This document shows, piece after piece, positions 17,464-47,180 of a DNA stretch of 64,000 nt. Positions within the stretch are counted from its first letter, which is position 1; each line of letters begins with the position of its first letter. Source of the DNA: Ginglymostoma cirratum (taxonomy: Eukaryota); assembly GCA_024137785.1 (NCBI GenBank), contig JAHRHZ010000109.1:477659-541658 (forward strand), in the 5' to 3' direction. The notes under the pieces are model-generated. The model made no database searches and was not told the origin of the DNA. It saw only the letters and a list, made by a program, of their open reading frames with translations. The position numbers and the translations under genes were made by a program.

Positions 17464-17521
17464 TCAGTAATACAGTCATATATGGTTTCTAGAAATAATA
17501 ACTGGACAGTAAAATACTTAC

Positions 17522-18990: not shown

Positions 18991-19047
18991 AGATTTTTTT
19001 GAAACAAAAATAGAGATCACTGGAAAAGCTCAGCTAGTCTGGCAGCA

Positions 19048-19185
19048 GAGATAAAAGGTACTGCAGATGCTGGAGAATCCCAGATAACAAGGTATGGGGC
19101 TGGATGAACACAGCAGGCCAAGCAGCATCATAGGAGCAGGAAAGCTTGACGTTTCGGGACTAGACCATTCATCAGAAATCAGAAA
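19048..19185 (-). mobile_element. 138-bp Penelope-derived element with a minimal hammerhead motif and a 13-bp TSD
   Basis: The minus strand reads CTGATGAatggtctagtcccGAAACGTC. It is flanked by the direct repeat tagtctggcagca at 19035-19047 and 19186-19198. Confidence 0.8.
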
Positions 19186-19707
19186 TAGTCTGGCAGCATC
19201 CCTTTTTCCAGCAGAGAGCGACGGGAACTGAGCGGAAGCGAGGTCGGAGCAGAGAGGCTGTTGGGAAGGTAAGTGTTTGCCATTTAAACACTTACCTCGA
19301 AGCCAGTGGTCCTTTTTAAGTAGATGTGTTCTAAGCCCCAGGTCCTACACAGTAGGGCCTCCCTTCCACCCTCCTCCTCTAACCTAATTAATAGTCCACA
19401 GACTTGCAGCAGGGAGAGCGGGAACGTCAATCAGGGGCCTACAGGAAAGGTGAGTCACCACTTTAAAATTTAAAAAAACTTACCTCGACCGGCGGATCCC
19501 TCCATTTCTGTTCCAGCAATAGGAAGAGCGGGAGCTCTAACCAAGAAGGACACTCGTGTGTTGTTAAGGTAAGGCTTTTCAAATTATATTTCTTGTGTAT
19601 CGTGTGATTGATTAGAAGTTTAATTGGTTAATTGAATAAGACCGCAGCAGAGAAGTACTAGGAATTATTTAATACATAAATTGTAAAAGTTAATTAAATA
19701 AGTAGTT

Positions 19708-20661
19708 ATGCGTGGACAGGTGATGTGCTGTGGCTATATGATGTGGGAGCTGGCTGATCTCATTGTGTCTGGCAGCGACCACATCTGCAGCAAGTGTTGG
19801 TTGCTGGAAGAGCTCCGGATCAGAATTAATTATCTGGAATCTGGGCTTCAAACTCTGCGGCACATCCGGGAGGGGGAGAGTTTCCTGGACACTTTGTTTC
19901 ATGAGGCAGTCACACCTGTTCGATTAAGAAATTCAAATTCAATAAGTGTTCAGGGACAACAGGGTATGACTGTAAGTGAGGCAGTTAGGGGGATTTTGAG
20001 TTCAGGAGTGCAGGAGCCACAGCCCTTGACCTTGATCAACAGGTATGAGATTCTTGCTCCCTGTACAGATGAGAGAAAGGGCTGCGGACAGGATGAGCCA
20101 GCTGACCACGGCACCATGGTGCAGAAGGCCATTCAAGTGGGGGGAGCAAAAAGACAAGTAGTTGTTATAGGGGATTCTAGAATTAAGGGGACAGATAGTA
20201 TCCTATGCAGGCCGGATCGGGAGTTCCGCATCGTGTGTTGCCTGGCTGGTGCCAGGGTGCAGGACATCTCCGACCGGCTTGAAAAGATACTTAAGGTGGA
20301 GGATCCAGTTGTTGTGGTAAACGTTGGGCCTAACGACAGAGGCAAAGCAAGGTTAGAGAACCTGTTCAGGGATTATCTAGCACTAGGAAGGAAATTGAAG
20401 TATAGGTCCTCAAGGATCATAATCTCCGGATGACTGCCAGAGCCACGTGCCAATTGGCATAGGGATAAGAAAGTTAGGGAAGTAAACACGTTGCTAAGGG
20501 ATGGGTGTGGAAAAGAGCGATTCCATTTCATGGGGCATTGGCATCAGTTTTGGAACCGGGGGGATCTGTACCGTTGGGACGGTCTCCACCAGAACCCATC
20601 TGGAACCAGTGTTCTAGCGAAAAGAATAAATAGGGTGGTCAGTAGGACTTTAAACTTCTGA
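19708..20661 (+). pseudogene. CR1 ORF1: Zn-finger/leucine zipper plus SGNH esterase
   Basis: HICSKC..LEELRIRINYLESGL, VVVIGDSRIKG, VVVNVGPND and WDGLHQN. One in-frame TGA at 20431-20433. Confidence 0.9.
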
Positions 20662-20839
20662 GTCGGGGGAGGGGTAGGGAAAGCAACAGGGTGTATGGAG
20701 TTAAATGGAAAGATAAGCAGCAGGATAACATGTGAGCAGGTGGTTTTAAGCTCAAGGCAGACTAGGAATGCAGCAAAAAGGAAGGATAAGTTAGGACATT
20801 TCATGATTTCCAATACCTCTAATAATGATAAGAAAGTTA

Positions 20840-23626
20840 GCATTAAGGCACTTTACCTAAATGCTCGTCGTATTCGTAACAAAGTAGATGAATTAATGGC
20901 ACAAATCATCTTGAATGATTATGATGTGGTAGGCAACAGAGACGTGTGTGCAGGGGGTTCAGGACTGGCAGTTAAACATCCAAGGATTTACAACTTATCG
21001 AAAAGACACGGAGGTGGGCAGAGGGGGTGGGGTTGCCTTGTTAGTTAAGAATGAAATCAAATCAATAGCACTGAATGACATAGGGTCAGATGATGTGGAG
21101 TCTGTGTGGGTGGAGGCGAGGAACCACAAAGGCAAATAAACCATAATGGGAGTTATGTACAGACCTCTGAACAGTGGTCAGGACCAGGGGTACAAGATGC
21201 ACCGGGAAATAGGGCATATCAGAAAGGCAAGGTCACGGTGATTATGGGGGACTTCAATATGCAGGTGGACTGGGTGAATAATATTGCCGGTGGATCCAAA
21301 GAAAGGGAATTCATGGAATGCCTACAGGATGGCTTTTTGGAACAACTTGTTATGGAATCCACAAGGGAGCAGGCTATTCTGGACTTAGTGTTATGTAATG
21401 AGCCAGACATTATAAAAGGCCTTAAAGTAAGGGAACACTGAGGAGGCAGCGATCATAATATGGTAGAGTTCAGTCTGCGGTTTGAAAGATAGAAGGAAAA
21501 ATCGGATGCAATGGTGTTACAGTTAAATACAGGTAATTACAGGGGCATGAGAGAGGAACTGACGAAAATTGACTGGAAGCAGAGCCTAGCGGGGAAGACA
21601 GTAGAGCAACAACGGCAGGAGTTTCTGGGTGTAATTGAGGACACAACACAGAGGTTCATCCCAAAGAAAAGAAAGATTATCCAGGGGAGGATTAGACAGC
21701 CATGGCTGACAAAGGAAGTCAAGAAATGTATCAAAGAAAAAGAGACAGCCTATATTGTGGCCAAGAGCACTGGGAAATCAGAAGATTGGGAAGGGTACAA
21801 GAACAAACAGAGGATAACAAAGAGAGAAATAAGGAAGGAGAGGATCAAATACGAAGGTAGGCTATCCAGTAATATTAGAAATGACAGTAAAAGTTTCTTT
21901 CAATACAGAAGAAACAAACGAGAGGCAAAAAGTAGACATTGGGACGTTCCAAACTGATGCTGGAAGGCTAGTGATGGGAGATAAGGAAATGGCTGAAGAA
22001 CTTAATAAGGATTTTGCGTCAGTCTTCACAGTGGAAGACATGAGTAATATCCCAACAATTAAGGAGAGCCAGGGGGCAGAGTTGAGTATGGTAGGCATTA
22101 CAATTGAGAAAGTGCTAGAAAAGCTAAAAGGTCTAAAAATTGATAAATCTCCAGGCCCCGATGGTGTACAATATAGAGTTCTAAGGGAGGTGGCTGAGGA
22201 AATAGCGGAGGCGTTGTTTGTGATCTTTCAAAAGTCAGGGGAAGTCCCAGAAGATTGGAAAATCGCTGTTGTAAACCCTTTGTTTAAGAAAGGATCAAGA
22301 CAAAAGATGGAAAATTATACGCCGATTAGCCTAACCTCGGTTGTTGGTAAAATTCAAGAACCTATCATTAAGGATGAGATTTCTAGATTCTTGGAAGTGC
22401 AGGGTAGGATTAGAACAAGTCAGCATGGATTTAGTAAGGGGAGGTCGTGTCTGACACACCTGTTAGAATTCTTTGAGGAGGTAACAAGTAGGTTAGACCA
22501 GGGAAACCCTGTGGATGTTATCTATCTAGACTTCCAAAGGGACTTTAATAAGGTGCCTCACAGGAGGCTGCTGAGTAAGGTGAGGGACCATAGTGTTCGA
22601 GGTGAGTTACTGGCATGGATTGAGGATTGGCTGTCTGACAGAAGGCAGCGAGTTGGGATAAAAGGCTCTTTTTCGGAATGGCAACCGGTGACAAGTGGTG
22701 TCCGACAGGGTTCAGTGTTGGGGCCGCAGCTGTTCACTTTATATATTAATGACCTAGATGAAGGGACTGGGGGCATTCTGGCGAAGTTTGCCGATGATAC
22801 GAAGTTGGGTGGACAGGCAGGTAGTACGGAGGAGGTGGGGAGGCTGCAGAACGATTTAGACAGTTTAGGAGAGTGGTCCAGGAAATGGCTGATGAAATTC
22901 AATGTGAGCAAATGCGAGGTCTTGCACCTTGGAAAAAAGAATACAAGCATGGACTATTTTCTGAACGGTGAGAAAATTGATAAAGCCGAAGTACAAAGGG
23001 ATCTGGGAGTGCTAGGAGAGAATTCTCTAAAGGTTAACTTGCAGGACGAGTCTGTGATTAAGAAAGCGAATGGAATGTTGTCATTTATCTCAAGAGGGTT
23101 GGAATATAAAAGCAGCGATATGCTTCTGAGACTTTATAAAGCTCTAGTTAGGCCCCATTTAGAATACTGTTTCCAATTTTGGGCCCCACACCTCAGGAAG
23201 GACATACTGCCACTCGTGCGTGTCCAGCGGAGATTCACATGGATGATCCCTGGAATGGTAGGCCAAACATACGATGAACGGCATAGGATCCTGGGATTGT
23301 ATTCATTAGAGTTTAGAAGGTTGAGGGGAGATCTAATAGGAACTTACAAGATTATGCATGGCTTAGAAAGGGTGGACGCTGGGAAGTTGTTTCCGTAAGG
23401 TGGGGATACTAGGACCCGTGGGCGCAGCCTTAGAATTAGAGGGGGTCAACTTAGAACGGAAATAAGGAGACATTTCTTCAGCCAGAGAGTGGTGGGCCTA
23501 TGGGATTCATTGCCACGGAGCACAGGGGAGGCCGGGACGTTGAATGTCTTCAAGGCAGAGATTGATAAATTCTTGATCTCGCAAGGAATCAAGGGCGACG
23601 GGGAGAGTGCGGGTAAGTGGAGTTGA
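20840..23626 (+). pseudogene. CR1 ORF2: AP endonuclease plus reverse transcriptase
   Basis: LYLNARRIRNK, RGGGVALLV, MGDFN, ILDLVL, SDH; then KSPGPDG, QHGFSKGRSCLT, GVRQGSVLGP, KFADDTK. Several stops and frameshifts; the 505-aa segment 21881-23398 is open. Confidence 0.95.
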
Positions 23627-27000: not shown

Positions 27001-27294
27001 GAACGCACGCACAGAGTGACTTAAACCCAACTCCTGAGCTCAGTCCCAACATCCTCCCATTCCCTTGGGGCTGAGTCTGTCTCTCTCCAGCTTAGCTTCT
27101 TCAACACAAAGACAAACAACAATATACTTTACTGTGCTGCTTGGCACTTTTTAATGAACATTAATTACATGTTGAAGTTATGGATGCAGTCAGTGGAATG
27201 GTGCCTGTTCTCTGTGGCCTGTGAGTTGAAAGAAACATTGACATGTTTCCCTGTAATCCCCTGTGGGATAAGGTTGGACAAACCAGCACTACCC

Positions 27295-28277
27295 TCAGCC
27301 TGTTGCCGTAGCAACAGGCTGCTTCATTTCTGAAACAATTGATATGAAATAAAATCCTGGATGGATTGATTCATGAGTGAATTTGATTAATTGATGAATT
27401 TGGGTAAAGGGATATTTCAGCATATTCTCCAGCTGCTGTCTGAACTTAGCCTGGGTCACGGCATAAATCGTGGTGTTTGTGGAGGAACTGAGGAGCTGCA
27501 GCATGAAGCCCATTTCCTGCACAAACCAATCTAGACGTACAGACTTATACCCAATCCACCACATCCGGTACCTTATAGAATACACCATTAACGCTGACCA
27601 GAACAGGATGAAATTGACCGAGATCACAAATAGTGAAATGATGGTTTTTTTTCGATTTCTTATTTGTGTGTCACATTGAGCGTCCCCATTGGTGTGAGCC
27701 CGGAGTCTCCTACAGGCTCTGCTGGTCACTAAAATGTGTCTGACGGTGAAAGCATTGATCAGCAGAATCAGGAGAACTGGGAGAGCCGGGGTGAGAGTGT
27801 GGTGGAGGAACTCGATTGTGACCCAGACACGGGATCTTTGAACATCGCCTATTCCACCACAAAACCAGGGGGCGTTCGCAAGCTGATAGCGAGCTGTGAG
27901 CATCAAATACCAGAAAATGTTCTTTAAACAGCTCAGCACAGTTACTGTTCCCAGAACCACAGCCGCCGATTTATCACCGCAATATTTACTTTTCGGCTTC
28001 TGGCAACAAATGGCCACAAATCGATGAAAGGTGAAAGTGACGGTGAACCAGACAGAACAGTCAGTGGCTGCATAAAGCAGGACGGCGTGGATATTACACA
28101 CGGGGATGGTCTCCAGGAAATCAAACTGTTCCGGGTAAACAATGGGAATGTGTCTCAATATCAGGTCGAGGATAATGACCAGTAGATCCGCCACTGCCAT
28201 GGCCCCCAGGTAACGTCTGACACATGGAGACAATCCACAATCTTTATAAAGCAGGATATAGATTGTCACTACGTTAA
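27295..28277 (-). CDS. GPR139/GPR142-like class A GPCR, exon 2 (end of TM1 to C-terminus), intact
   Basis: Open frame of 327 codons after the acceptor ttcaccacAG at 28279-28278. Motifs LGAMAVADLLVII, ATDCSVWFTVTFTFHRFVAICC, FILFWS and NTTIYAVTQAKFRQQL. Seven hydrophobic segments when joined to exon 1. Confidence 0.92.
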
Positions 28278-29089
28278 CTGTGGTGAAGGAAAACAAATAA
28301 ATTATACATCAGCCTGAAGGCAAAGTTACCAGTTTGATTGAGGACCCAGTGACATTTTCAAACGTATCACTGATTTATTGGGGAAAAAATGAAGCTGAAA
28401 TAACAAATAGTAATGTCTCAGTTTCTTTTTACAAAAAACGCAACATAAAATACAAGTAACTTTCCCTCCTGAAAGACACAAACGCACCACCATAAGAACA
28501 GATGGTTTATAAAATATTCCCACAGACTTGCTCACTCGAGAGCAGGCACAGTTCACTTATTTGCAGTTCCTGATACAGAAGGTAAAGACGTTGCAGTCCT
28601 GAAGGAATCTCTCCCAGTTCCTTGAAGACAAACGGAGGTTGGAAATTTCTGTCTTTTCGTCTAAATTGTTGTCAATTTTCGGTTGTGAAGAAACATGAAC
28701 ACAGGGAAATTGTATTCACCCGTTTAACTGCCTGAGGGGACATTGAAACAGTGTCTCCTTCTCCCTGGAACGGGATCTTTTCCCTCGGGATGTAATCTTT
28801 TGTTCAATTAACTGACGTCCGGCCGTTCACAAATAATGCCAGTTACAGAATGTACCGGGGAATGTCGGCTAGAGAATGTGATGGAGTCATAAAGATCCAC
28901 ATCACGAAGGCCCTTCTCTTTATCAGTTTTGGTGAGATCCACTCAGCCTCGCAGTGGATATCTCTCCCCAAACTCACACAACTGGCAAATACAAATTCAA
29001 GGCATTGCCAGATCAGCTGAAGTGGTCAGTTATCTCACATTCTCAATCCACCTCACAGAACCAGCCCAGACACCACAAATCCAAATGAA

Positions 29090-29445
29090 ATGTCTGTTCA
29101 GCATGGATCACTGTGCAGGCCAGGCCAGTGTCCTGCTCAATACAACCTGGCCGTCCGTCCAGAGTGGGACACAGTGCAGGTCTCACCAGACAAATCGATC
29201 TCAGTCCAGCACAGGGAGCTGCGCAGGCCACACCAGTGCCTTGATCTATTAACGCGGACTAGATGTCTGTCCAGTGTGGAGAGCTGTGCAGACCACACGA
29301 GCGCACTGATTCATAAACCCAGGCCAAGAATCTCTCCAGCACAGAGGGCTGTGAAGTGAAAACCACTGAACTGATCTGTAAACCAGGATCAGTTACCCTC
29401 CCAGTATGTAGATCTGTGCAGAACACCTCAGTGCAGTGCTCGGTA
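29090..29445. repeat. Degenerate tandem repeat of about 65 bp (about 6 copies)
   Basis: Recurrent core tccagYRYRgRgRgctgtgcagRcca at about 29097, 29158, 29205, 29270, 29336 and 29400. Confidence 0.6.
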
Positions 29446-29984
29446 ACACTGTGTTAAATCGCTGCCCAGCCTGGGGAAACTTGCAGCCCATACTGGAAGT
29501 GACAGGATGTTTCGGCTCCCATTCACTTACAGCTCCATATCTCCAATGTGCCATGACAAAGGGTGCCATGGGTGTGAAAATCACTGCCAGAGAGAGATGG
29601 TGGAGCATCAGTTCAAACACGAACAAATGGGATGGGTTGGATATATAGACAGAGAGGGCGAGATTGAGAGACAGTGTCATGGAACGATGCGTTCACAAGT
29701 TTTAGAATGCTGACATGTAAACATTTTGATAGCATCCTGCAACATGGGTTAGTTTTTTCACGAATGATGCATGAATCGGATATTGTTGTGAGTTCAGATG
29801 ATGGGGAGTTTTGAATGAACATTTGTTCTGCGTTTGTGACTGAGAGTGTGGTGAGCACAGTCTTTGGCTCATTGGGCTGAATCTAACAATAATTTGTCTC
29901 AATGTCATTTTAATTGATTGCGACAGAAGGATAGTCTGCAGGTTGCCGAGCTAGTTTTCTGATGCTATCTTATCAAAGTCCCCT

Positions 29985-30457
29985 CATTATCCACCTACCC
30001 GACAACATGTCATTTCTCTCATTCAATGCCAGTCTGACTCTCCCACCCATCATGGCTGGTAATAGTTCCCATCGCCTGGATGGCCCGGGTATTCCATGAT
30101 CCCTGGCGCAGGTGCCATCTTTAAAAGGCCAATGGGCACAAATTTGAACTTTCTCAGTTCGGAGCCGGCCTGCACGGTTTACCCTGAGCCTGACAGACAA
30201 CGGGTAATTGCACCAAGATTTATCGAAAGGGACACGGAGGTCCTGGTGGGTGGGCTAGTACAAAAGATGACCATTCTATTAGCAGAGAAAACCACACCAC
30301 CAGACCCGCCGAGCATGGCCTGAGCTCACCATCCAGCTCAGTGCAGTATCTGCAGTTTGAAGAACTGTCCAGCAACGCAAGACAAGCAACAATAACTTCC
30401 CCGTTCTGTCATGGTAAGTATCACCGAATTCTCAATGCCCCCTCACTCTCTCTCTCA

Positions 30458-30488
<31 letters not shown>

Positions 30489-30800
30489 GCCACCGCTACT
30501 GCCTTACACTGAAAACACTGCATGTATCCAACACTTTTGACTGATTCAATCCAGATACCTCACCGCTTCCCCCTCACCTACACCATCACTAACAGCAGGG
30601 CCACGCACATTCACCTTCATTCCCTTCCTCCCTTTCCCTCATTCCAGGAGAAACAGCCTGGAATAGGACAGAAAGGGCCAAGCAAGGCGGTGGTATTCCC
30701 CACATCAGTTCCCTCACCCACCTTCCTCCGCCGAGTGGGTAGGACCATGGAACGAGCTGGAGAGAACCAGGACGACCCGTGTGGAGATTCCAAAATACAC
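29985..30800 (+). mobile_element. Harbinger-associated Myb/SANT-like gene remnant with intron
   Basis: APRFIERDTEVLV at about 30209, donor ggtaagt at about 30412, and an exon-2-like cagGAGAAA encoding (EK)TAWNRTERAKQGGGIPHISSLT at about 30646. This matches the Myb_DNA-bind_5 layout of vertebrate Harbingers. Confidence 0.65.
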
Positions 30801-31519
30801 AAGTCCCACCTACCGAGTAAGGAGCAATGTTCAGTGTAGGGTAATTCTCATGTTAAACCCACTGTCATTTCCATTTCCACCTGGCACAGCTTAGAAACTG
30901 TGTCTCTGATGCCATCTCCCTTTCATCTCGAGCCGGTACAAACGGAATCTCCACAGTCTCGTTAGGCAGGAGGGTGGGCTCTCAACCCATGGTCTCCACC
31001 AGCTCCCAGGAAGGGAGCATGGAGTCTCCCTCCTCCACCTCCTCCTTCAGACAGCTCAGCTACTGAAACTAACCTGTAATATTTCCTCGTCTCCCAACTT
31101 GTCCTTACATCTTCAATAATACAGCATTGAAATTGTCATAGAGTCACAATCCCCATGGAACAACTGAACTACTGTCACACTCACAGGAGCGAGCAAATAC
31201 TGATGTACTCGCATGGAGTGACTCAAATAATGAAACATTGTCCACGGAATAACAGAAATCCTGACACACACCAGATGGAATGAATGAAATATTGACAAAC
31301 CACAGAGGCAGAGAAATTCTCATAGGCTCCCTTTATTTGTATTAGTATTGGTTTATTTGTGTGTGTATTTGTGTGTGTCTGTGTGGGGCAGCTCTGAAAG
31401 TGTCTGTGCTGTTTGATGTGATGCAATGCCACCTTCTGCTGGTCACGCCACTGTTCAGGCAGCAGCAGAGGATGAGAACCATCAGGGATTTATTCAGGGA
31501 GGGACTGGAAGGGCAGCAG

Positions 31520-32235
31520 CTCACAAAACCATCCAAACTGATTTCTTCTTCATGTACTTATCTAAATGTCTTTTAAACGTTGTAAATGTACCCACTTCCA
31601 CCATTTCATCTGGAAGTTCATTATTTACACGAACGACTCTCTGTAAAATAATTGCCGCTCATGTCTTTTTTTTTAAATGGTTGCTCCTCAAAAGTTGAAA
31701 TATTCCCGTCGTCTTGAAATCCTCTACCCTTAGAAAAAGGTCCATAACATTCAAGTTATCTGTACCCCTCATGATTTATAAACCACAATCAGGTCACCCC
31801 TCAACCTCCTACGCACAACAGAGAAAAGTCCCAGCCTATCCAGCCTTTCCTTTTAACTCAAACCATCCTTTCCCAGCGACATCCTGGTAAATCTCTGTTG
31901 ATCCGTGTCCAGAGTAATATTATCCTTCCTATGACAGTGCGACCAGATCTGGACACAATGCTCCGGAAGATGTCTCACCAACGTCCTGTACGATCTGAAA
32001 ATGACATTCCAACTCCTAAATTCAAAGGTGTGAGCAATGAAGGCAGTGTACTGAACACCTTCTTCGTATGTGTCCATATGTCCAACACCCTGTCCATATG
32101 TGACACAGACTTCATAGAACGACAGTATAGTCTCTGTTCTGCAACGCTACTAACGGTCCTAATTTAAATTGTATAAGTCCTGCCTTGTTTGTTTTACCAA
32201 AAGCAATGTCTTGCATTTATGCAAATTAAACACAA
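31520..32235 (-). mobile_element. CR1 LINE 3' fragment
   Basis: YRTLVRHLPEHCVQIWS...QQRFTRM (ORF 31853-32077). Confidence 0.85.
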
Positions 32236-32893
32236 TCTGACACACCACAGCCAAATGAGTGATATTCCCACCCCCCAACACAACCCTAAAACATGTTTTG
32301 TAAGACACTCCCAACTCCAGAAGGCCTACAAGCTCTGGCCTTTATTTTCCCAAGACCCTGCGCTTGGTTTGCCTTGTGCGGGCAGGAGGAAGGGTGGGGT
32401 GTATATTGCAGACTCGCCAGTGGTGAGGAGACGCTGGAATATAATTTGTTGCTTTGCAGCATTTAATGATTTTAGGAGGACGGCAATAACACATTCTTGA
32501 CGGGAAATAGTGATCTGCAATACGGTCTTTTGGGGCCGAAACCTGTGCTCTTTTGTCGTCTCTGGTGTTCAGTAATAATATCTATTCGTGAATCTTCATA
32601 GCGCAGAGTATGTCTGCATGCATTCTTTCCCTAACGTTGCAGTCTGCAGATAATAGCAATTTAAGCTGCAAATCATGGCCAAGCAATTAAAGATGTTAAT
32701 AGTTTATCTCAAGTGGCACAGCACATGCACTCAACATTCTGTAATTGAGACAAGTAACTTGCATTTGTTCAATGCTGAAAAATCTTCCCTGTGTAATTCA
32801 GTAAAGTAAACAGAATTTGATAAATCCAAGATAACAAACATGGGGCTGGATGAACACAGCAGGTCAAGCAGCATCATAGGAACAGGAAAACTT

Positions 32894-32921
32894 GACGTTT
32901 CGGGCCTAGACCCTTCATCAG
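32894..32921 (-). ncRNA. Minimal type I hammerhead ribozyme core (candidate)
   Basis: CUGAUGA-a-GGG-ucuagg-CCC-GAAAC-GUC on the minus strand; duplicate at 33453-33480. Confidence 0.65.
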
Positions 32922-32943
32922 AAACTGGATTTCATCAGGATTT

Positions 32944-32971
32944 CTGATGAAGGGTATAGGCCCGAAACGTC
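32944..32971 (+). ncRNA. Minimal type I hammerhead ribozyme core (candidate)
   Basis: CUGAUGA-a-GGG-uauagg-CCC-GAAAC-GUC; duplicate at 33503-33530. Confidence 0.65.
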
Positions 32972-33020
32972 AGGTTTTCCTGCTCCTATGATGCTGCTTG
33001 ACCTGCTGTGTTCATCCAGC

Positions 33021-33420
33021 NNNNNNNNNNNNNNNNNNNNNNNNNNNNNNNNNNNNNNNNNNNNNNNNNNNNNNNNNNNNNNNNNNNNNNNNNNNNNNNN
33101 NNNNNNNNNNNNNNNNNNNNNNNNNNNNNNNNNNNNNNNNNNNNNNNNNNNNNNNNNNNNNNNNNNNNNNNNNNNNNNNNNNNNNNNNNNNNNNNNNNNN
33201 NNNNNNNNNNNNNNNNNNNNNNNNNNNNNNNNNNNNNNNNNNNNNNNNNNNNNNNNNNNNNNNNNNNNNNNNNNNNNNNNNNNNNNNNNNNNNNNNNNNN
33301 NNNNNNNNNNNNNNNNNNNNNNNNNNNNNNNNNNNNNNNNNNNNNNNNNNNNNNNNNNNNNNNNNNNNNNNNNNNNNNNNNNNNNNNNNNNNNNNNNNNN
33401 NNNNNNNNNNNNNNNNNNNN
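33021..33420. other. Assembly gap (400 N), probably artefactual
   Basis: The same 159 bp flank both sides of the gap. Confidence 0.95.
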
Positions 33421-33694
33421 GGTCAAGCAGCATCATAGGAACAGGAAAACTTGACGTTTCGGGCCTAGACCCTTCATCAGAAACTGGATTTCATCAGGAT
33501 TTCTGATGAAGGGTATAGGCCCGAAACGTCAGGTTTTCCTGCTCCTATGATGCTGCTTGACCTGCTGTGTTCATCCAGCCCCATGCTTGTTATCTCGAAT
33601 TCTCCAGCATCTGCAGTACCTTTTATCTTTCATAAATCCAAACTCAGCTGATAGCTGGCTTGCAAAATGTGTCTCAAAATCTGGCCATGACTTA

Positions 33695-33995
33695 GGTCTG
33701 TGTAATGGGTAGCGCCAATACCTCTGTGCCAGAGCTCTGTATTCAATTCCCACCCCTGAACCTATGGTAATGTCACTAGTTCTGGACCAGAAGTTCTGGA
33801 TTCAAGTCCTGCCAGTCGCAGAGGTGTGTCACAGCATGTCAGAACAGGTTGATGAGCAAACTTAGAGAGGAATAATGTTGCAGAATCAGGGACTATTGCA
33901 GTGCAGTGGTAATATCCCTACCTCTGGGCATAAAGGTCTAGATTCAAATCCCACGGAGCTGATTCATAATATGTTTGAACAAGTTGGTTGAATTT
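33695..33995 (+). repeat. Three tandem tRNA-derived SINE-head-like units
   Basis: Repeated (g)tggtaatgtc-cta-ctct...ag---...ttcaa(a/g/t)tccc units (A/B-box-like) at about 33700, 33765 and 33905. Confidence 0.5.
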
Positions 33996-34114
33996 TTTCT
34001 GGAATTGTGACATGATCGAGAAGGAAGAGGAAGGAGTTTTGAATTTCACAATTTCGGTCCGGGATAACAGAAAGCACAGTAATTCGTGTTGATTGGAATA
34101 AAATTTATACTTTT

Positions 34115-34425
34115 TATATGTTTATAAAATCATGAAGGGCATGGATAGAGTGAACAGTCAAGGTCTTTTTCTCAGAGTATGGGGAGTCAAAAGTTAGAAG
34201 GCACAGTTTTAAGGTGCGAGGGGAGAGATCAAAAGAAAAACATATGGAATGAACTGCCAGGCGAAGTGCTGGAAGCTTGTGAAAACATTTTAAAGGTATC
34301 TGGACGGGTATATGAATTGGAAGGGTCCAGAGGAATATAGGCCAAATACTGGCAAATTGGATGAGATTAATTTCGGACATCTGGTCAGCATGGACATGTT
34401 TCACCAAATGATTTATCATATCTTT
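34115..34425 (+). mobile_element. CR1 3' fragment
   Basis: tttataaaatcatgaagggcatggatagagtgaac...gggtatatgaattggaaggg, the typical CR1 3' end. Confidence 0.75.
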
Positions 34426-35479
34426 ATGATTCATTCATCCAATTGTTCAAGATCTCTTTGTAATCTAAGATACCCTTCCCTGTCTATGTTCAAATAATCT
34501 CAGTGTCCTCTGTAAACTTGCTAATCGTGCCTTCCTTAATTTTCGTGTAAATCATTTATTTAAATGACAATTAAAAGTAAATCCAGCACAGGTCCCCATG
34601 GATCACCGCTAGTCACAGGCTTCTAGTCTGACGAACAATCCTCCGTGACCACCCTGTCTCCTGAGTCCTGAGTAGAAATACACACACGCACACACATACG
34701 CATATAGAGACACAGACACAGTCAAGTCTTTAAGACAGAGATAGATAAATTTTAATTAGTAAGCAGATCAAGAGTTACGATGAGAAAACAAGAGAAATGT
34801 TTTGAGAAACATGTCAGGCATAATCGAACAGCAGAGCAGACTTAATGGGCCAAATGGCTAATTCTGGTCCAACTTCTTATGCTGTCTGGTCTGAAAGTAT
34901 CGGAAATATTTTCCCATGAGAGCAGTGATGGCTAAGTTTGATCGATTCTGAACTGAACAGAGTTGATTGGAATATGGAATAGGTTTTAGGGGATGAATGG
35001 TTTATATCTGTTCCTATTTGTTGTGGTTTTTAAAGAGGAGGTAACTTGCTATGAGGTTAACACACATCAAGGAGTCTCCCAATTAACATTGAGATAAGAA
35101 TATTTCTTTCTCTTTGATATTGTGCTGTCTGTAGTGTTCTCATCCTCAGGGAACAGTGAAGGCTGGGTTAGTGAAGATATTCAAGGCGGAGCTCAACTGA
35201 CCTTTTATGGACAAGAGAGTCCATTATTGGCAATAAACAGGAAAGGGGTGTTCAGCCATAAACAGATTAGCTTTGATCTTTCTAAATTGAGCAGCAGGCT
35301 CGAGGGTCCAAACGGCCAACTGCAGGTCCTATCCTGTGTGTTGTTCTCTCACTCCAACCCTCGAAGCTGTTACAGAGGGAAAGGAAATCCCCCTTCAAAC
35401 AGTCGTGGTTGTGACAATGAGATAGGAGATCATTCTTCCTCTCTCAGGAGTTACACAGGACTAGAATGAAGTACTCAGA

Positions 35480-35870
35480 CATAGAATCATAGAGACATAG
35501 AGATAGACGGCATGCATACAGACACTTCGGTCCAACTCGTTCACGCTGCCCAGATATCCAAAATAAATCTGGGCCCATTTGCCAGCATTTGGTTAATACC
35601 TCTCTAAACCCTTCCCAAACATATACTCATCCTGGTGCCATTTAAATTTTGTAATTGTACCGGCCTCCACCACTTCCTCTGGCAGCTCATTCCATAAACA
35701 CACCACCCTCTGTATGAAAATATTTCCCCTTAAGTCCCTTTTAAATGCTTCCCCTCTCTCCTTAAACCTATGCCTTCTAGTTTGGACTCCCCCACCCCGG
35801 GGAAAAGGCCTTGATTGTTTACACCTCTGTGCCCCTTATGACTTTGCAAACGTCTGTAAGGTCACTCATT
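35480..35870 (-). mobile_element. CR1 3' fragment
   Basis: Begins with the catagaatcatagag tail, followed by the reverse complement of the RT C-terminus (ccttaaacctatgccttctag). Confidence 0.8.
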
Positions 35871-36344
35871 AAAGAAATTTAAAAAAAAAAATTTTATTGT
35901 GTACCAATTGTGGTAATTTTTCCACACAGCACCCACAGCCAAAAATGAAATTAATCATTAAGATTATCTGTATTCGTGGTGTTGTTAAAGGGACAAATGT
36001 TAACCAGACTGATAGGAAATCGTCCCTCCTCAATACATTGCCGGGGAAAATTGAACACCTGTTTGAGAGGGCAGACCAGATTTATTGCTGCATCAGAAAG
36101 ACAACATTTTTGACCGTGCAACATTCGACTCAAGTGTTAGTCTATATTCTGTGCTTGTCTTTTAAACGCTCAAGGATCAGATGTATTGACAGCATAACCT
36201 CTCCCTGATGATCTGACAACAAATAGCCCTAATGGTATGTTGCTGAGCTCAGATACATCTCGACAACCAGCTACACATCACAGTAGAGGCCCTGCACACT
36301 TTCTAGGCCTCTGCGCAGGGACTGCTGGTTCACGAACAGAAATT

Positions 36345-37105
36345 GCAGAGTATAGATAATTATTTATTTTCAGGTTGGAAATCTGCAACTAGTGGAATTC
36401 CTCAGGGATCGTTGTGAGGTCATCAACAGTTTACAAACTAGATTATCGATTTGGATGAGGGGCTGATAGGATTGGAGCTCAATTTGCTAGTACACCAGTA
36501 TAGTCATCCAATAAGATGTCAAGTGGAGGTAAAACATCTACAATGGTGTATAGACAGGGGATGATAATGAGCAAAGTTTCGGCATTGCAAATAAAAGATT
36601 ACAATGCGGATTCTGGGACATTTGTGTTATGGGGAAAGGATAAAATGGCAATCAATTATATGACTGGAGAGAGAATGCACAGCTCAGTACTCAGGAGGGA
36701 TTTGTGTCTCCTGGTACATAAATCATTTAAAGTTAGTTTGAAGATGTTGCAAATGATTTGGAAAGTAAATGGAATACTGCTGTTTCTCACAAAGGGTGCC
36801 AGGTATGGTATCAGGTATGTTTCCCTGCTTCTGTACAGGGCTTTGCTGAGATTCCATCTAATGCACTGTCTGTAGCTGTAATTCCCTCAACTTGAAAAAA
36901 AAACACAATGGCCTTTGAAATTTTTCAAAGATGGTTCACTATATGCTGTCCTGTGATGTTGGCATTATGTTATGGAGGATTAACAGTTTAGGCCTGAGAA
37001 CGAGAAATATTCGTGACTATATAAGATCTTGAGGAGATTGTAAATGGTGAATACCTGACGTATAATTAGTCTTGAATGGGAGAATAAAACTGGAGAATTA
37101 ATTTT
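36345..37105 (+). mobile_element. Decayed CR1 RT fragment
   Basis: SGIPQGS (agtggaattcctcaggg), KFA and LLLYRALLRFHL. Confidence 0.75.
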
Positions 37106-37837
37106 AAAAAATAAAACAGGTTCTGAGGAAGATTCACTTGGCCTGAAAAATTAATTCTAATTTCTCTTCATATATGCTGCTCGGATGCTGAGCTTTTCCA
37201 GTAATTTCTGTATTTGTTTAGGAATAAGACACATTCATTTTAACACAGATGTTGTGAAGACATTAAATTTGTTATTTTTAATTTATGCAGTAACATGTAA
37301 ACATATCTTCAAATTAAGTGGGGCCATTTGTTGCTAAGGAAATGGCTCTGTGTATGACAGCAGCAACGATGCACCTACATGGAGCAGGAAATGTGATGGA
37401 AACATACAGATCGAACAATGTTCAAGGAGACCTCACATGTTCCAGTTTGGCGGTCGGATAACATTATTGTGAATTTCAACTCAGAGAAGAGGAAAAAACG
37501 GAACCTGCCTGAAAAGCAACAGCCTATTGCTCCCTCTCTTTTTCCTTGTTCCTCATCACATAAATGTATGAGAGCTGAAAACGCACCAATCATCTTTAGC
37601 ACTCGCGGAGAATTCATGACAAGGATTCATTGGAATCTCCCTCTACATGTAGCAAAGGGAATTCAGCCAAATTTAACTGTTCCAGGAAATAATACCATTG
37701 CCAACAACTTGTGCGAGCAGAATAAATTTGGAAGCAGAACAACATTTGGGACAATCTCTCTCACTTTTCCTTTCGTCATGAGTTCAACTATTACGTGGAC
37801 AAAGTTCTTTCAAATTAATATTTCAGGTTGTCATTAA

Positions 37838-37936
37838 ATGTGTGTGTGTGTGTGTTTGTGTGTGCGTATGTGTGTCTGTGCGTGTGTGTGTCAGTTCCTG
37901 TGTGTGTGTGTGCTTGTGCATGTGTGAACTGTGTGC
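37838..37936. repeat. Imperfect (TG)n microsatellite
   Basis: Direct sequence. Confidence 0.9.
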
Positions 37937-38214
37937 GTCATTCTTCTTTCCATCATAGTTTAAGTAAATTTGTTTTCGTCATAAACGTGTCATTTTAGCA
38001 GATTGAAGAAAACTGCCTGATTCGTTCCTTACACTGACCCTGACCCAGTCTAAGACCTATATTATCGGCCACATCACCAACCTGGTTACATTTTAAATTT
38101 GTTGTGACCAGTGGAGAAGTGGGACTACAAAAGGAAACAGTGACCCGACAAGCCAGTGCACCATAGACCATTGAGGCTAACATGAGTTGTGGCTATGTTG
38201 TTGGAGGGGATATT

Positions 38215-39525
38215 GATGGATAGGGTTTACATGCATTTGGAAAGGCAAGCATTGATTAGGGATAGTAAACATGGCTTTGTGCAGTGTAAATCGTGTCTCA
38301 CTAACTTGATTATTTTGAAGAGTTGATAAACAAAATTGATGAAGGCAGTATGGCAGACGTTTTCTTTATGGGCTTCAGGAAGGTGTTCGATAAGACTCTG
38401 AATGGTAAGCAGATTAGTAATGGTAGTTCACATGGGATCCAGGAAGAGTTAGCCAATTGAATTCAAAATTGGCTTGAAGACAGAGGATTGTTTTCCAGAC
38501 TGAAGTCCTGTGACCAATGGTGTGCCACAAGTATCAGTGCTGACTTCACTGCTTTTCATTATTAATATAAAGGATTTGGATGTGAATACCAGAGACATGG
38601 TTAATAAGTTTACAGATGATTTTAAAAAGTGGAGCAGTGGACAGTGGTGAAGTTTATCTCAGAGTGCAATTGGACATTGATCAGACGGGCCGATGGGCCA
38701 ATGGACCAAGGAATGGCTGATGGATTTTAATTTAGATAAATGAGAGGTTTTGCATTTGGTAAGGCAAAGCAGGGCAGGACTTTTACAGTTAATGCTAGGG
38801 TCCTGGGGAGTGTTGCTGAATAAAGAGACTTTGGGTGCACGCACATAATTCATTGAAAGTGGAGTAGCATGTAGACAAGATAGGGAAGGACACATTTGCC
38901 ACGATTATCTTAATCAGTCAGAGCATTGACTATAGGAGTTGGGATAGCATGTTACTCCTGTCCAGGATGTCGATGAGGCCACTTTAAGAATTCTGCGTAA
39001 TTTTCGTTGGTTCTGCTAAAGGAAGAAAGTTGTTAACCTTGAGAGGATGCAGAATTAGATTTACAAGGATGTTCCTCGACTGGAGGGTTTGAACTGTGGG
39101 GAGACGCTGAATAGTTTGAAGTGTTTTCCACTGGAGTGTCAGAGGCTGAGGGGTGACATGACAGAGCTTTATAAAATCATGAGGGGCATGAATAGTCTGA
39201 ACATCCAAGGTCCGTTTCCCAGGAGAGGGGATGTCAAAAGTAAAGTGCTAAGTTTGAAGGTGAGAGGGGAAAGACTTAGTAGCGAACTTCGGGCAACGTT
39301 TTGACGCAGAGAGTGGTGTGTGAACAGAAAAGTGCTATCAGAAGTGATGAAAGTCTGTCCAATTACACAGCTAAAAAGTAGTTGTATTGGTACATGAATA
39401 GGAAACGTTTAGAAGTATCTGGACCAAATACTGGCAAATGGAAATAGATCAGATTACATATCGAGTCAGCGTGGACAAGTTGGACTAAATTATCGGTTTC
39501 TGTGCTGTGTGACTTTCTGATTCTA
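38215..39525 (+). mobile_element. 5'-truncated CR1 LINE (RT plus 3' UTR)
   Basis: HGFVQCKSCLTNL, GVPQVSVL, KFTDD and RLRGDMTELYKIMRG. Confidence 0.9.
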
Positions 39526-39601
39526 TAAGGAGGATAAGAAGGAATTCTAAAAGGGCATTTGAAGTGGGAATTATCTTCCCCAGAAGTCTGTGGTGCCTTT
39601 C

Positions 39602-40147
39602 TGTTGACATTTATTCGAAGCTAATATAATGAAAGAGTTGACAGATATTAAGAAAACCAATTTACTTAAACACTTCAGTTAATATACAAACAAAGAAAGA
39701 GGAATTTAGAATAACCTAACTTCTGGAAAACCTAACAACATAATAGTTACAGCAACTATGACTAATTAACGGTTCCAGTATAGTAACAGCCCATAAACAC
39801 ACACATTGGTAAAAAATAAAATTCAGACACAGGTTCTCACATGCAGTTCTCCAATCCAGGAGAAAAAAAAAAGTCATACACCGAAAATTCAGCAGACAGG
39901 AGACATCCACTGACGCTTCCAACTCTGTTGAGACCCCTATAGTTTCTGAGGCAAATGAAAAGCAAAACTCAGAAATTTTAACATGTGAGAGCTCGTCACA
40001 CTCATTCAGGCTGCTTTGAAAATAAAAGAGGCCTCTCAGGCTGTGTACTCAAGTGGTCTTTACTCGACAGCTTTGTGCCTCTCGTTCAATCCCTCTCTTA
40101 AAAGAAACCAGGCCCAAATATAATCTTACAGTTACAGCATTGTCATA
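39602..40147. mobile_element. Possible solo LTR
   Basis: A non-coding block of about 545 bp starting tgttgaca and ending in tgtca(ta), with LTR-like composition. Recognised only by general resemblance. Confidence 0.3.
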
Positions 40148-42138
40148 CTAGTTCGCACATCGAGCTGTTACACAGGAACCCGGGGAAGGCCAATTAGGCA
40201 CTTGGCCCTGCTGTACAGCCCCTTGAGTCACTTACATATGAACAGGAGGAGGCCATTCAGCTCCGACAATCACTTACATGGAAACAGAGTGTGGTAACTG
40301 ATGCTCCAACATGACAAGCAAATGGAGCAGAGGTTGCACAGATAGTCTGCTTCACGCTGTTCATCGTGTCTCCATTGCTCATGGTACACATGTGGTACTT
40401 TAATGTAGTTTTATAGCAGTGAGGTGGGAAGCCTAATGTTTTGCGCAAAATCTCAAGTAGGCATCCTTTGAAAAGACTTGTGTTCTGTCTGGAGATCAGA
40501 ATTTGGTAGGAATGGCTAATCATTTCAGAAACAGTGTATAATGGCTGATCTCGGGATTGTGAACAACATGACGTTCAGTGTAAGGTCACACATTAATATG
40601 GGGAGATTTCATTCAGAGCCTGCACTTCTCTCTGAATTGACATGGGGCGCTATATTATTTAACATGGAAAATTTACATGTATTTACGCGGGAAAAGTATG
40701 GAAGTTTTCACCCTGTCAATGTCTTTTTTGAGCATAAGTGCTCACTGCCAACCCTCAAGTTTTAATGCAATTATCTCTTATTCTCGCACAGCGCGACAGA
40801 TTAAACACTCAGTTTCTTCACTGTCTCCTTATGGTGCCATCAACTCAGTGATTAGACTGGTGACACCCATTTGTACCGTGTCTGTGGCAAGGAGGTCTTT
40901 CCTTAAAAAATGATCAAACCTGTACACAATGCTACTAAATACTTTCTCATCAATGCTCTGCAAGTGCAGATACATGGTTTTATTAATGTGCTTGTGTCAT
41001 CTACAATGACGGACTACATTCCATTTACTTCCCTCATTACTGATACCCCTGTATGTCCTATTTGTGGCGAGCTATGATCAAGGTCATGCAGGAACCAGAA
41101 ATTCCAGAATCTAAGGAATTTTGAAGGGCAATTAATAATTCTTTCTTGTCGTTTCAAGTTTTAGATGACGTTTGGATATGTACGTCAATAGGAAACAATT
41201 GGAGGGCTATGGGCCAAGACCCGACAGGTGGGATTAGGATAGTTTGGGATAATGTTTGACATGGACTGGTTGGACTGAAGAGCTGTATGACCATGTAACT
41301 CTTTCACTAGCTCTATTACCACCTCCATGTGTACCCTGGGATGTACCAGAGCAACGTACCAAACTTCAGTTCAATTAGCTTTGAGTAATTCCTCTTTATT
41401 AATTCGAATCTCCCAAAGTTACTCATTTTCACAGCCACTCCGTCCTGTAGAATTTCTGGATGATTTTCTGTATCTTCTTCTGTGGAGACACAAGTAATGT
41501 ATTCCACTCAGCAGTGGGTCAATGGGGTTGCGATGAATTGAGATAGCCTCTGTCAACAAGAGAATACATCGGAACACTGCACTTAGGAGATGATGGATAT
41601 GGCACTCCGTCCTATTCGGAGAGTTCTAGAATCGAAACAGTTCAATGGAACTGTCATTTCATGGCCACCAACAGGTTATGCTGAAACAGCTGACACAAAG
41701 CTGTGACAACCTCATTTTAGAAACAAACTGGCATCACACTTTGCAACTAGCAAAGGCCCAGGTATAGACAAGAATATGTTTGCAATCAAAATATTTGTAA
41801 CTGGAAGACTGGCCAGAAGCGAGCTGCAACGGGAAAGGTGTAGATGATGGTTTATTCAGAAGCAGCACTGAAGCAGAAGTGAACACTGGGGATATTAGTG
41901 GTGTTAGAGGGAATATTGAGATATAAATCAGCTCAGAAGAAAATGGGGCATTCGTGGAATTGAACACTTTTTATCCCTCAGATATTTGCAACTGAAGAGT
42001 AAAAAAGCCATTGAATAAGATTGTAGTCGAAAATGAATACAATAGTTTGCATCGTTGCCATATAAAGAGCATAGAAATTGAGATGCTATTCACAAAGATT
42101 TACGGAATTAATAAATGGACAGAGAAATAAAGACTAAC

Positions 42139-44015: not shown

Positions 44016-44081
44016 ATGATCCGATATGACTGTTCTCCATTTTGCATACATTTTCCCCCTCCCAGTCTCCGTTTTACCATA

Positions 44082-44716
44082 GGTAACAAGGTATAGACCA
44101 GGATGAACACAGCAGGCCAAGCAGCATCAGAGGAGCAGGAAGGCTGACGTTTCGGGCTTAGACCCTTCTTCAGAAATGGGGGAGTGGAAGGGCGTTCTGA
44201 AATAAATAGGGAGAGGGGGGAGGCGGATATATGATGGATCGAGGAGAAAATAAGTGGAGATGAGACAGACAGGTCAACGAGGCAGGGATGGAGCCAGTAG
44301 AGGTGAGTGTAGGTGGGGAGGTAGGGACGAGATAGGTCAGTCCAGGGAGGACGGACAGGTCAAGGGGGCGGGATGAGGTTAGTAGGTAGAAGATGGGAGT
44401 GGGGCTTGGGGTGGGAGGAGGGGACAGGTGGGAGGAAGGACAGGTTAGGGAGGCGTGGACGAGCTGGTCTAGTTTTGGGATGCAGTAGGGGTAGGGGAGA
44501 TCTTGAAGCTTGTGAAGTCCACATTGATACCATTGGGCTGCAGGTTTCACAAGCGGAATATGAGTTGCTGTTCCTGCAACCTTCGGGCAGCATCATTGTG
44601 GCACTGCAGGAGGCCCAGGATGGACATGTCGTCTGAGGAATGGGAGGAGGAGTTGAAATGGTTCGCAACTGGGAGGTGCAGTTGTTTAGTGAGAACCGAG
44701 CGTAGGTGTTCTGCAG
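44082..44716 (-). mobile_element. Penelope-like element 3' end (GIY-YIG C-terminus, CT-rich UTR, hammerhead-motif terminal repeat)
   Basis: AEHLRSVLTKQLHLPVANHFNSSSHS...LQEQQLIFRL. Core CTGAAGAagggtctaagcccGAAACGTC at 44146-44173. Confidence 0.9.
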
Positions 44717-45524
44717 ATGCTGCCAGACCTGATTTTCTCCAGAAATGAATAGGCATAGAGCAAATTTTCAGGAAAACACAGTACTGTGGATATTGTAAAT
44801 GTGGAAAAATAAACAAAAAAAATGGAGAAACTGGAAGCTTCGAGGAAGGATCATGAGACGTGAAACATTAACTGCTTTCACTCCACAGATGCTGCCAGAC
44901 ATGCTTAGTTTCTCCAACAATTTCTGTTTTTGTCTAAATTCTAATGACGTGTGTCAAAGCTGCTCAATAGCCCTGTACAACATGAAGCACCAACACCTGG
45001 AAGTGAACAATAGCACAAGGTGCACAAATTCATTGATTCTGAAACTCCATAAGGCTGGCATCACTGACATATACATCTTAATCATGGTCTGGGAGAGAAA
45101 CAGAGGGAAACACATTCACTTTAAACACTGTAGATGACACTACTGGAAGGGAAAATGTTCACATGAATATGTTAAAAGGTTTTGAGGAATGTGACAAATT
45201 GGAAGCATGACACCATGGAAAGACGCTCAGAACAATAAGAATATTAAAATTGAATTGGTACCACATCAGAACCAAGAATAGGTCACTGCGGACAGGGGCA
45301 ATGGTGACTCGGTGTGAACTGGGGGACAAGCAGCACAATTACATTGTACGTACTGCAGCGTAAAACTGTGCACTCATGTGGAGATGCATTCCACTACAAT
45401 TTTTTTTTGCCTGGGATAATACCTCAGTCTCCCATTACCATAAAGCCCATCAACGATTCAGTGACGAATGCGGGTGAACATGCCAGGATCAGGACAATAT
45501 GAACCGAAGATAGATGGCAACCCG

Positions 45525-46682
45525 TTAATTCTTCAAGGACGGCAACTTCCCCCCCGCCAGTGGTCGAGAACGCCCTCGACCGTGTCTCCCGCATTTCAAC
45601 CGCAACTCATTCCTCACACCCCGTCCCCGCAATAATAACCAAAAAAGAATCCCCCTCATTCTCACGTACCACCCCACCAAACTTCGGATCCAACGCATCA
45701 TCCTCCAACGCTTCCGCCATATGCAATCTGACCCCAACACCAAAGACATTTTTCCCTCCCCACCCTTATCTGTTTTCTGGAGGGACCACTCCCTCCGTGA
45801 CTCCCTTGTCCGCTCCACACTCCCCTCCAGCCCCACCACACACGGGACTTTTCCCTGTAACTGCAGGAAGTGCTACACCTGCCCCCAGACCTCCTCCCTC
45901 ACCCCAATCCCAGGCCCCAAGAAGACTTTCCACATCAGGCAGATGTTCACCTGCACATCTGCCAATGTGGTATACTGCATCTGCTGTACCCGTTGTGGCT
46001 TCCTCTACATCGGGGAAACCAGGCGGAGGCTTGGGGACCGCTTTGCAGAACACCTGCGTTCAGTTCGCAACAAACAACTGCACCTCCCAGTCGCGAACCA
46101 TTTCAACTCCCCCTCCCATTCCTCAGACGACATGTTCATCCTGGGCCTCCTGCAATGCCACAGTGATGCCACCCGAAGGCTGCAGAAACAGCAAATCATA
46201 TTCAGCCTGGGAACCCTGCAGCCGAATGGTATCAATGTGGATTTCACAAGCTTCAAAATCTCCCCGCCCCCAACCGCATCCCAGAACCAGCCCAGCTCAT
46301 CTCCGCCTCCCTAACCTGTCCTTCCTCGTACCTATCCCCTCCTCCCACCTCAGGCCCCAGCCCCATCTCCTATCTACTAACCTCATCCCGCCCCCTTGAC
46401 CTGTCCGCCCTCCCTGGACTGACTTATCTCCTCCCTACCCCACCACCTACACTCTCCTTAACTGGCTCCATCCGAGCCTCTTCGACTTGTCTGCCTCCTC
46501 TCCACCTATACTCTCCTCTATCCACCTTCTATCCGCCTCCCCGTCTTTCCCTATTTATTTCAGAACCCTCTTCCCCTCCCCCATTTCTGGTGAAGTGTCT
46601 GGCCCCGAAACGTCAAGCTTTCCTGCTCCTATGATGTTGCTTGGCCTGCTGTGTTCATCCAGCCCCACACCTTGTTATCTCG
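45525..46682 (+). mobile_element. 5'-truncated Penelope-like element (RT-EN linker, GIY-YIG endonuclease, terminal repeat)
   Basis: GTFPCNCRKCYTCP...FTCTSANVVYCICCTRCGFLYIGETRRRLGDRFAEH...LGTLQPNGIN. Mutated hammerhead core ctggtgaagtgtctggccccgaaacgtc near 46587-46614. It is inserted inside an older LINE. Confidence 0.93.
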
Positions 46683-47180
46683 AAATCTACTGCACTTGTC
46701 TGCTTGCTTTCCGAACAGCAGGACTAGCATCTGAGAGAGAGGGCAAAGTCATCCCAAGATCTAAGCTCGGCCATGTCCAGTCATAAATGGTGGTGGAATA
46801 TTAAACAACTCAATGGAGGAGAGGGCTCTTCAAATATCTCCATCCTAAATAATGGAACAGCCCCACACATCAGTGCAAAAGACAAGGCTGTATTATCTGT
46901 CCCATGCTCAGCCAGAAGTATCACGTGCATGATCCACCTCACTCTCATCATGATGTTCAGAGAATCACAGATGTCAGTTTTCAACCAATTCGATTCGCTG
47001 CAGGGGGCACCATGAATAAGTTGAACACAGTAGATACGACAAAGGCGATGGACCTTGACACCATTCCTGCAATATACTGAAGGCTTGTGCTGCACAACCA
47101 GCTATGTCCCTGGGGAAGCTGTCTTATTACAGTTCCAACTCTGACATCTACCTGGAATTGTGGACAACGACTTAGCTACA
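46683..47180 (+). mobile_element. Fragment of a second non-LTR retrotransposon family (CR1/L2 group)
   Basis: KWWWNIKQLNGGEGSSNISILNNG..HISAKDKA followed by KAMDLDTIPAI (KAxGPD-like). Confidence 0.7.

Follow-up and report, generated by a model that had tools for sequence, protein, structure and literature searches.

The window analysed here, a 64,000-nucleotide stretch of a Ginglymostoma cirratum contig (JAHRHZ010000109.1), carries a short inverted insertion within the intron of a two-exon rhodopsin-family GPCR gene (Table 1). The host gene, which matches the Pfam 7tm_1 family, is encoded on the minus strand; a 13.9-kb intron separates the end of exon 1, near 42139, from the start of exon 2, near 28277. 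Once a 159-bp duplicate across a 400-N gap is collapsed, 239 bp lie between the two copies of the target site duplication (TSD). The insertion consists of two inverted arms (32823–32924 and 33500–33601 are 94% complementary over 102 nt) of unequal length, approximately 95 nt on the left and approximately 129 nt, including a tail, on the right. The 15-nt filler that separates them contains a third, partial copy of the hammerhead core, and the reverse transcription (RT) starts lie 92 nt (left arm) and 125 nt (right arm) from C3 of the respective core. A first-pass annotation, made from the letters alone, had described two inverted arms of about 95 bp in an element of about 240 bp, devoid of coding sequence and located in a GPCR intron; the arms, the size, the lack of coding sequence and the intronic position are all borne out, with the arm lengths refined to the values above.

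Table 1. Features of the insertion and its host intron (window coordinates)
Feature	Position	Strand	Remarks
Left TSD copy (14 bp)	32816..32829	+	Last 7 nt match the element continuation at 6/7
Left arm, pLTR piece without tail	32830..32924	-	Begins 3 nt upstream of the core and reaches the inner RT start at 92 nt from C3
Minus-strand minimal type I hammerhead core	32894..32921	-	C3 at 32921; sense to the GPCR pre-mRNA; consensus-predicted cut between 32894 and 32893
Junction filler, 15 nt	32925..32939		Unique to the locus; re-copied bits of the arm 5′ ends
Right arm, first assembled piece	32940..33020	+	C3 at 32944, preceded by 4 nt of arm; cut predicted between 32971 and 32972
400-N scaffold gap	33021..33420		Likely assembly break at the hairpin
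Exact duplicate of 32862–33020	33421..33579	+	Private mutations and the unique seam recur here; probably one stretch of DNA assembled twice
Right-arm end with tail of ~33 nt (about 33595–33627)	33580..33627	+	Reaches the outer RT start, 125 nt from C3
Right TSD copy	33628..33641	+	Fourth base G to C relative to most empty sites (G in 16/18)
Host intron, two-exon rhodopsin-family GPCR gene	28278..42138	-	Context, outside the element

The element is bounded by a direct repeat of 14 bp with one mismatch (32816–32829 and 33628–33641). The intron flank is multi-copy in the genome, with at least 40 paralogous matches and paralogs on contigs C101, C102, C109, C110, C134 and C202. Of 19 paralogous flank copies, 18 run through a single 14-mer with the insert absent, and the remaining one bears a small deletion at that point; the repeat is hence a genuine TSD, in agreement with the first-pass annotation. 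Elsewhere in the window, tandem two-exon rhodopsin-family GPCR paralogs are found at 12933–14838 and 27080–28987, the first with a frameshifted exon 2. Broken frames at 2065–2916 (minus strand) resemble a retroelement integrase by eye, as frames at 19702–23398 (plus strand) resemble a CR1/L2-type LINE reverse transcriptase region, and a 114-bp near-palindrome at 55224–55337, which is unrelated to the Penelope arms, scores weakly against a microRNA model, short of the model's gathering score.

The sequences on either side of the 400-N gap (32862–33020 and 33421–33579) are 100% identical over 159 bases. Because these bases share a unique seam, because the same overlap around a gap is present at two other fold-back loci (L021 and L023), and because gap-free units of similar size with their own TSDs are common (for example L005, L007, L009, L012, L017, L022 and L025), the gap-side duplicate is treated as a likely assembly artefact. 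That the gap instead conceals a longer Penelope body or a genuine tandem duplication, the arms being merely the ends of a bigger insertion, appears highly improbable given this identity, which extends to private mutations, and given the gap-free units of equal size; complex tandem and inverted insertions do occur in the genome (e.g. locus L003), and no sequence spanning the gap was found among contigs from four sequencing runs, which at 80% likeness covered the flanks and arms only. The other 400-N gap of the window (within 16960–17465) adjoins an arm at 17360–17465, just past exon 1 of the neighbouring GPCR paralog, and is likewise a likely hairpin-caused break.

The arms are 85–90% like the ends of two Penelope elements in the same window (44081–44177 and 46583–46694), so that the match to the terminal repeats of GIY-YIG Penelopes noticed in the first-pass annotation holds. 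The reading frame at 45529–46314 matches the Pfam GIY-YIG family at 22.7 bits (cut-off 22.6) and has a Cys cluster ahead of the GIY-YIG stretch; a Cys cluster or Zn-finger-like linker in this position has been linked to the Neptune and Nematis groups (PMC8557442, in the portion available). Other copies of the family continue beyond the tail into the reading frame. By sequence likeness, the arms are pieces of the pLTR of an EN+ Penelope-like element (PLE), i.e. one with a C-terminal GIY-YIG domain. Their layout, with inverted, 5′-truncated, head-to-head pLTRs, a tail at one end only and a TSD, is the standard one for EN+ PLEs (PMC3846280, PMC8557442) and is already in print (Arkhipova 2013, Cervera 2014, Craig 2021). 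The family is abundant: the genome contains 56,035 young cores that are exact, and the arm body matches it 101,033 times. The region 44044–46694 itself comprises two older 3′ pieces of GIY-YIG Penelopes, head-to-head, with degenerate cores and approximately 800 bp of other DNA between them.

Each arm contains a hammerhead core, one on each strand and 22 nt apart. Cores of the form CTGATGA..GAAAC give five matches in the window compared with 0.54 expected from shuffles, and an Rfam search of the window returned no hammerhead family at E ≤ 1. The boxes (CUGAUGA, A, GAAA), a 4-bp helix II and a palindromic ACGU remnant of helix III are present in both arms, consistent with the minimal type I assignment given at first, and helix I has 3–5 weak pairs. 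In the 13-nt class (254 cores), the changes in helix II that recur are all one-sided (U-G to U-A in 16), the family being too young for a covariation test. Cores with an altered helix II base account for 1,729 genome matches and, among the 100 matches listed, appear to carry single mutations, with no sign of compensatory families.

The first-pass annotation had further proposed that the minus-strand core could cleave the GPCR pre-mRNA or fold it into dsRNA. As RNA, the unit is predicted to form a hairpin of approximately −155 kcal/mol, in the context of which helix II has a probability of approximately 1e-16; whichever strand is read, just one of the two cores is in sense orientation, and it is preceded in the transcript by its antisense arm. 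The host pre-mRNA is unlikely to be cleaved, because the arms are predicted to pair in full, burying the cores, and because such motifs are poor cleavers: minimal PLE hammerheads cleave poorly even as dimers (PMC4209133), and that of an anole PLE needs protein (PMC11167929, in part). The dsRNA half of the proposal is plausible; judging from the same predicted fold, the host pre-mRNA would likely contain approximately 95 bp of intronic dsRNA, provided that the intron is transcribed. The ribozymes would appear to be passengers in this insertion. At seven other loci (L054, L086, L088, L104, L214, L230 and L234) arms begin at the predicted cut or 0–6 nt 3′ of it, which could be a trace left by in vivo cleavage. 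At locus L082, 30 nt upstream of the core, bases present in long copies are predicted to pair weakly (−11.6 kcal/mol) with the 5′ strand of helix II, and could hold the ribozyme off in read-through RNA.

The central seam between the arms is unique genome-wide with up to two mismatches allowed, the only matches being the two gap-side copies. The back-to-back junction pattern as such is common, with 4,017 matches per strand (some places are counted twice across gaps, and L034 at least is unrelated) and 0 for a reversed control; seams vary widely, by eye, among the matches listed. Sixty gap-free head-to-head pairs, a set that includes the left piece from the window and one element counted twice, and which, like the arm sample described below, was drawn from the first-listed places and is not random, show 52 different combinations of arm 5′ ends, and both cores are whole in 18 of them. 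The uniqueness of the seam and the diversity of end combinations lead us to conclude, from these sequence comparisons, that the units are made anew at each insertion by an abundant Penelope family.

These results also bear on the original interpretation of the locus, in which a non-autonomous fold-back element with ribozymes as its sole content is transcribed and moved as a whole, in trans. One part of it stands, in that the element is a TSD-flanked retro-insertion whose protein was supplied by another copy; the mobile fold-back unit does not, as the roughly 4,000 back-to-back junctions in the genome have varied seams and this seam is found at one locus only. For such a unit one may cite the absence of coding sequence, the presence of its own TSD and the thousands of similar units, together with the finding, from Adineta, that other DNA can be moved with no cis sequences beyond the pLTRs (PMC3846280, available in part). 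One seam does recur, at two nearby places (L029 and L030), yet their right flanks are shared. Mobility as a unit is contradicted for this copy by its unique seam, either transcript would be a hairpin predicted to bury both cores, and the arms do not form a head-to-tail array as in retrozymes; we regard it as very unlikely. The related assignment as a non-LTR retrozyme was rejected on layout, the arms being head-to-head with cores on opposite strands (compare bioRxiv 10.64898/2026.07.22.740005 and PMC6765202, as far as their available text goes).

The 5′ ends of the arms are not spread evenly. Ends were located relative to C3 (positive values being upstream) for 78 arms, obtained from the first 100 matches (99 examined) of a pattern 3′ of the ribozyme, after 21 of the 99 that ended at gaps were dropped. 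Twenty-five arms end at +1 to +7 and 16 at −1 to −7; two end inside the core, one at +13, none at +14 to +72, and 23 further upstream, whilst 11 end 3′ of the predicted cut, seven of these within 1–5 nt. Genome-wide, nine upstream element bases are kept in 28,087 of the 56,035 exact cores, mutation and gaps explaining part of the loss. The stop is seen in single arms and in partial-tandem units (L158, L160, L174, L175, L177 and L178) as well as in head-to-head pairs. One such single arm lies in the window on the minus strand (19035–19199, arm 19048–19180), with a tail, its own 13-bp TSD, a stop at +4 and a re-copied terminal 7-mer. In the partial tandems, the downstream unit begins at the hammerhead edge and the upstream unit runs 110–360 nt past the tail, its own 5′ end, where visible, being mostly at the same hammerhead edge; this arrangement suggests a template jump after run-off.

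The peak of arm ends lies on CCATTTC, the A of which is 4 nt before the core; this motif is initiator-like. The transcript of Drosophila Penelope starts inside the pLTR (PMC2377424, in part). Judged from the insertion ends and this short motif, there is slightly better than an even chance that the fixed stop marks the 5′ end of the RNA, i.e. its transcription start. The last filler base before +4 is C in 20, G in 18, A in 4 and T in 0 of 42 cases, by a crude parse which left 28 of 82 rows unparsed and in which some G belong to the partner arm; the excess of G over A and T, as copying of a cap would predict, is suggestive only. Both arms starting at the ribozyme cut was rejected for the studied locus, where each arm includes the whole core, and an origin as one turn of a small RNA circle was likewise rejected, since the sequence 5′ of the stop differs from copy to copy. 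A cleaved template may, from their end positions, lie behind a minority of arms, because 11 of the 78 end 3′ of the predicted cut.

With priming of the same kind on both strands, the stop might alternatively reflect a structural or processing block, such as a stem, a protein bound at the hammerhead or a nuclease-trimmed end. The second group of ends (16 of 78 at −1 to −7) would fit such a block, as would the predicted pairing of upstream bases with the 5′ strand of helix II, since a stem there could pause the RT. This stem is weak, however, and the main peak, at +2 to +5, lies between the 5′ strand of helix II, by then already copied, and the C-rich tract; of the arms that do pass the stop, nearly all extend at least 73 nt more. 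A block thus seems unlikely as the general cause, and we continue with the RNA 5′ end as the preferred reading of the stop.

The tails and RT starts inform on how the two arms are related. A tail is present on exactly one arm in 51 of the 60 gap-free pairs, compared with 29.8 expected if the arms were independent (p = 1.5e-8). RT starts cluster at 83–94 and 123–133 nt from C3, with one at 140, and each insertion has one start of each class (22 of 33 pairs mapped via their TSDs); the starts of the studied element fall in both clusters. Subfamily letters are discordant between arms at only 7 of 132 sites, where random pairing would give 65.5, and both arms must therefore derive from the same RNA or source. 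The use of two different RNAs per insertion is accordingly not supported, a few pairs being discordant (L192/L120).

Among one-tail pairs with 5′ ends differing by at least 8 nt (n = 33), the tail-bearing arm is the shorter at the hammerhead side in 22 and the longer in 11; a further 18 pairs are near equal. As each arm holds sequence that the other lacks in 22 of the 33 unequal pairs, neither is a plain copy of the other in these, although the 22 to 11 split is indistinguishable from 50:50 (p = 0.08) and trimming after self-priming could yield the same shape. The TSD ends match the continuation of the element over 2.3 and 1.8 nt on average, compared with a null of 0.3 that reached at most 1.0 in 2,000 draws; this comparison covers the 22 of 33 pairs that were mapped. 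The protein of an anole PLE has been found in vitro to cut both target strands and to extend them from two start sites which bound the tail; according to the available part of that report, initiation took place on cut DNA that lacked homology, whereas a short match is present in the shark units (PMC11167929).

Taken together, the rule of one tail per pair, the concordant arms, the reciprocal overhangs, the matches at TSD ends and the both-strand extension by the anole protein favour priming from both nicks. The insertion is probably a single abortive, TSD-flanked, head-to-head event in which both nicked strands served as primers for a PLE protein and copying ended, on each, just 5′ of the hammerhead. 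In the mechanism we envisage, the GIY-YIG domain would nick the two target strands approximately 14 nt apart. Priming would use the outer (tail) site for one strand and the inner site for the other, on the same type of RNA, helped by 1–3 nt of pairing between the target end and the RNA; at the left TSD, the 6/7 likeness implies that such pairing would be possible at the inner start. Both cDNAs would then run off the RNA at its 5′ end, and the centre would be closed by end joining that leaves short re-copied fillers; these could stem from the RT or from host end joining.

An abortive Penelope insertion could also acquire its mirror arm if a single strand folded back or primed itself and integration trimmed the tail off one side, and self-priming on an antisense template has been proposed by Arkhipova 2013 (Discussion of PMC3846280, available in part). 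Agreement of the arms at subfamily sites is expected on this account too, and many seams are short palindromes among the matches listed; the 11 of 33 unequal pairs in which the tail arm is longer at both ends also fit it. Reciprocal overhangs, by contrast, are impossible by plain fold-back without later trimming, single arms that have no partner stop at the same 5′ point, and extension of both strands has been seen in vitro for another PLE (PMC11167929, in part). We therefore judge fold-back distinctly unlikely, and retain priming of both nicked strands.

The closest published parallel is Pen2a_Av of Adineta (PMC3846280; scheme in Figure 2 of PMC8557442), in which, from the parts of these papers available, head-to-head inverted pLTRs, a tail of 30–40 nt at one end, a TSD and trouble in short-read assembly are all found. 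Unlike Pen2a_Av, the shark units are free of a body, both arms being pLTR-only and stopping at the hammerhead edge; the TSD mode is 14 bp, compared with 8–10 bp in the Adineta cases, and thousands of shark loci allow ends to be counted. With the minimal PLE hammerheads (PMC4209133) the shark cores share the core boxes, a single base between A9 and G10.1, the G10.1–C11.1 pair and the palindromic remnant of helix III. In the same work (2014), dual motifs approximately 100–700 bp apart on opposite strands were interpreted as truncated PLEs; the putative shark ribozymes differ from these in that their cores lie only 22 nt apart, with helix II limited to 4 bp and helix I to 3–5 weak pairs.

Poseidon PAc of Anolis (Frangieh 2024, PMC11167929) likewise has two internal RT starts which bound the tail, with both strands cut and extended, and inserts without need for hammerhead cleavage. 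The shark starts differ in lying upstream of the ORF start, in the 1–3 nt of target pairing and in being coupled, one per arm; the available portion of the PAc report describes neither strand-dependent start sites nor a fixed 5′ stop. Non-LTR retrozymes of animals (bioRxiv 10.64898/2026.07.22.740005; PMC7229834; both in part) resemble the shark unit in being non-coding, derived from pLTRs, equipped with a type I hammerhead and dependent on PLE protein. They are, however, head-to-tail repeats with cores on one strand, whereas the shark unit is head-to-head with a single-copy seam and cannot give a dimeric ribozyme in cis. In the literature covered, thinly so for subscription papers and supplements, which leaves absence unproven, we found no description of ORF-less, back-to-back pLTR stubs with a fixed stop in sharks, or of coupled starts.

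The element is a real but ordinary dead insertion of a known Penelope kind. What makes it useful is that it belongs to a set of thousands of natural reaction products that inform on PLE insertion, a process in which the making of inverted repeats and tails has been called undefined (PMC8557442, in the portion available). The counts obtained here (coupled starts, reciprocal overhangs and the fixed 5′ stop) favour priming of both strands, and the exact positions can be tested in the in vitro system of PMC11167929. The hairpins of such stubs break short-read assemblies, and the stubs would place approximately 95 bp of dsRNA in host introns.

More tentatively, and on balance short of probable, the stubs may be the Penelope counterpart of retroviral strong-stop DNA, present at the scale of ten thousand in this genome. 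One complex would prime both target strands at two coupled starts near the 5′ end of the RNA and run off the cap-bearing end, which lies 4 nt before the hammerhead; for a body to be inserted, a read-through template or a jump would then be needed. If this reading is correct, the inverted pLTRs, the one-sided tail and the partial tandems would all arise by one mechanism, and the family's transcription start site could be mapped from DNA alone.
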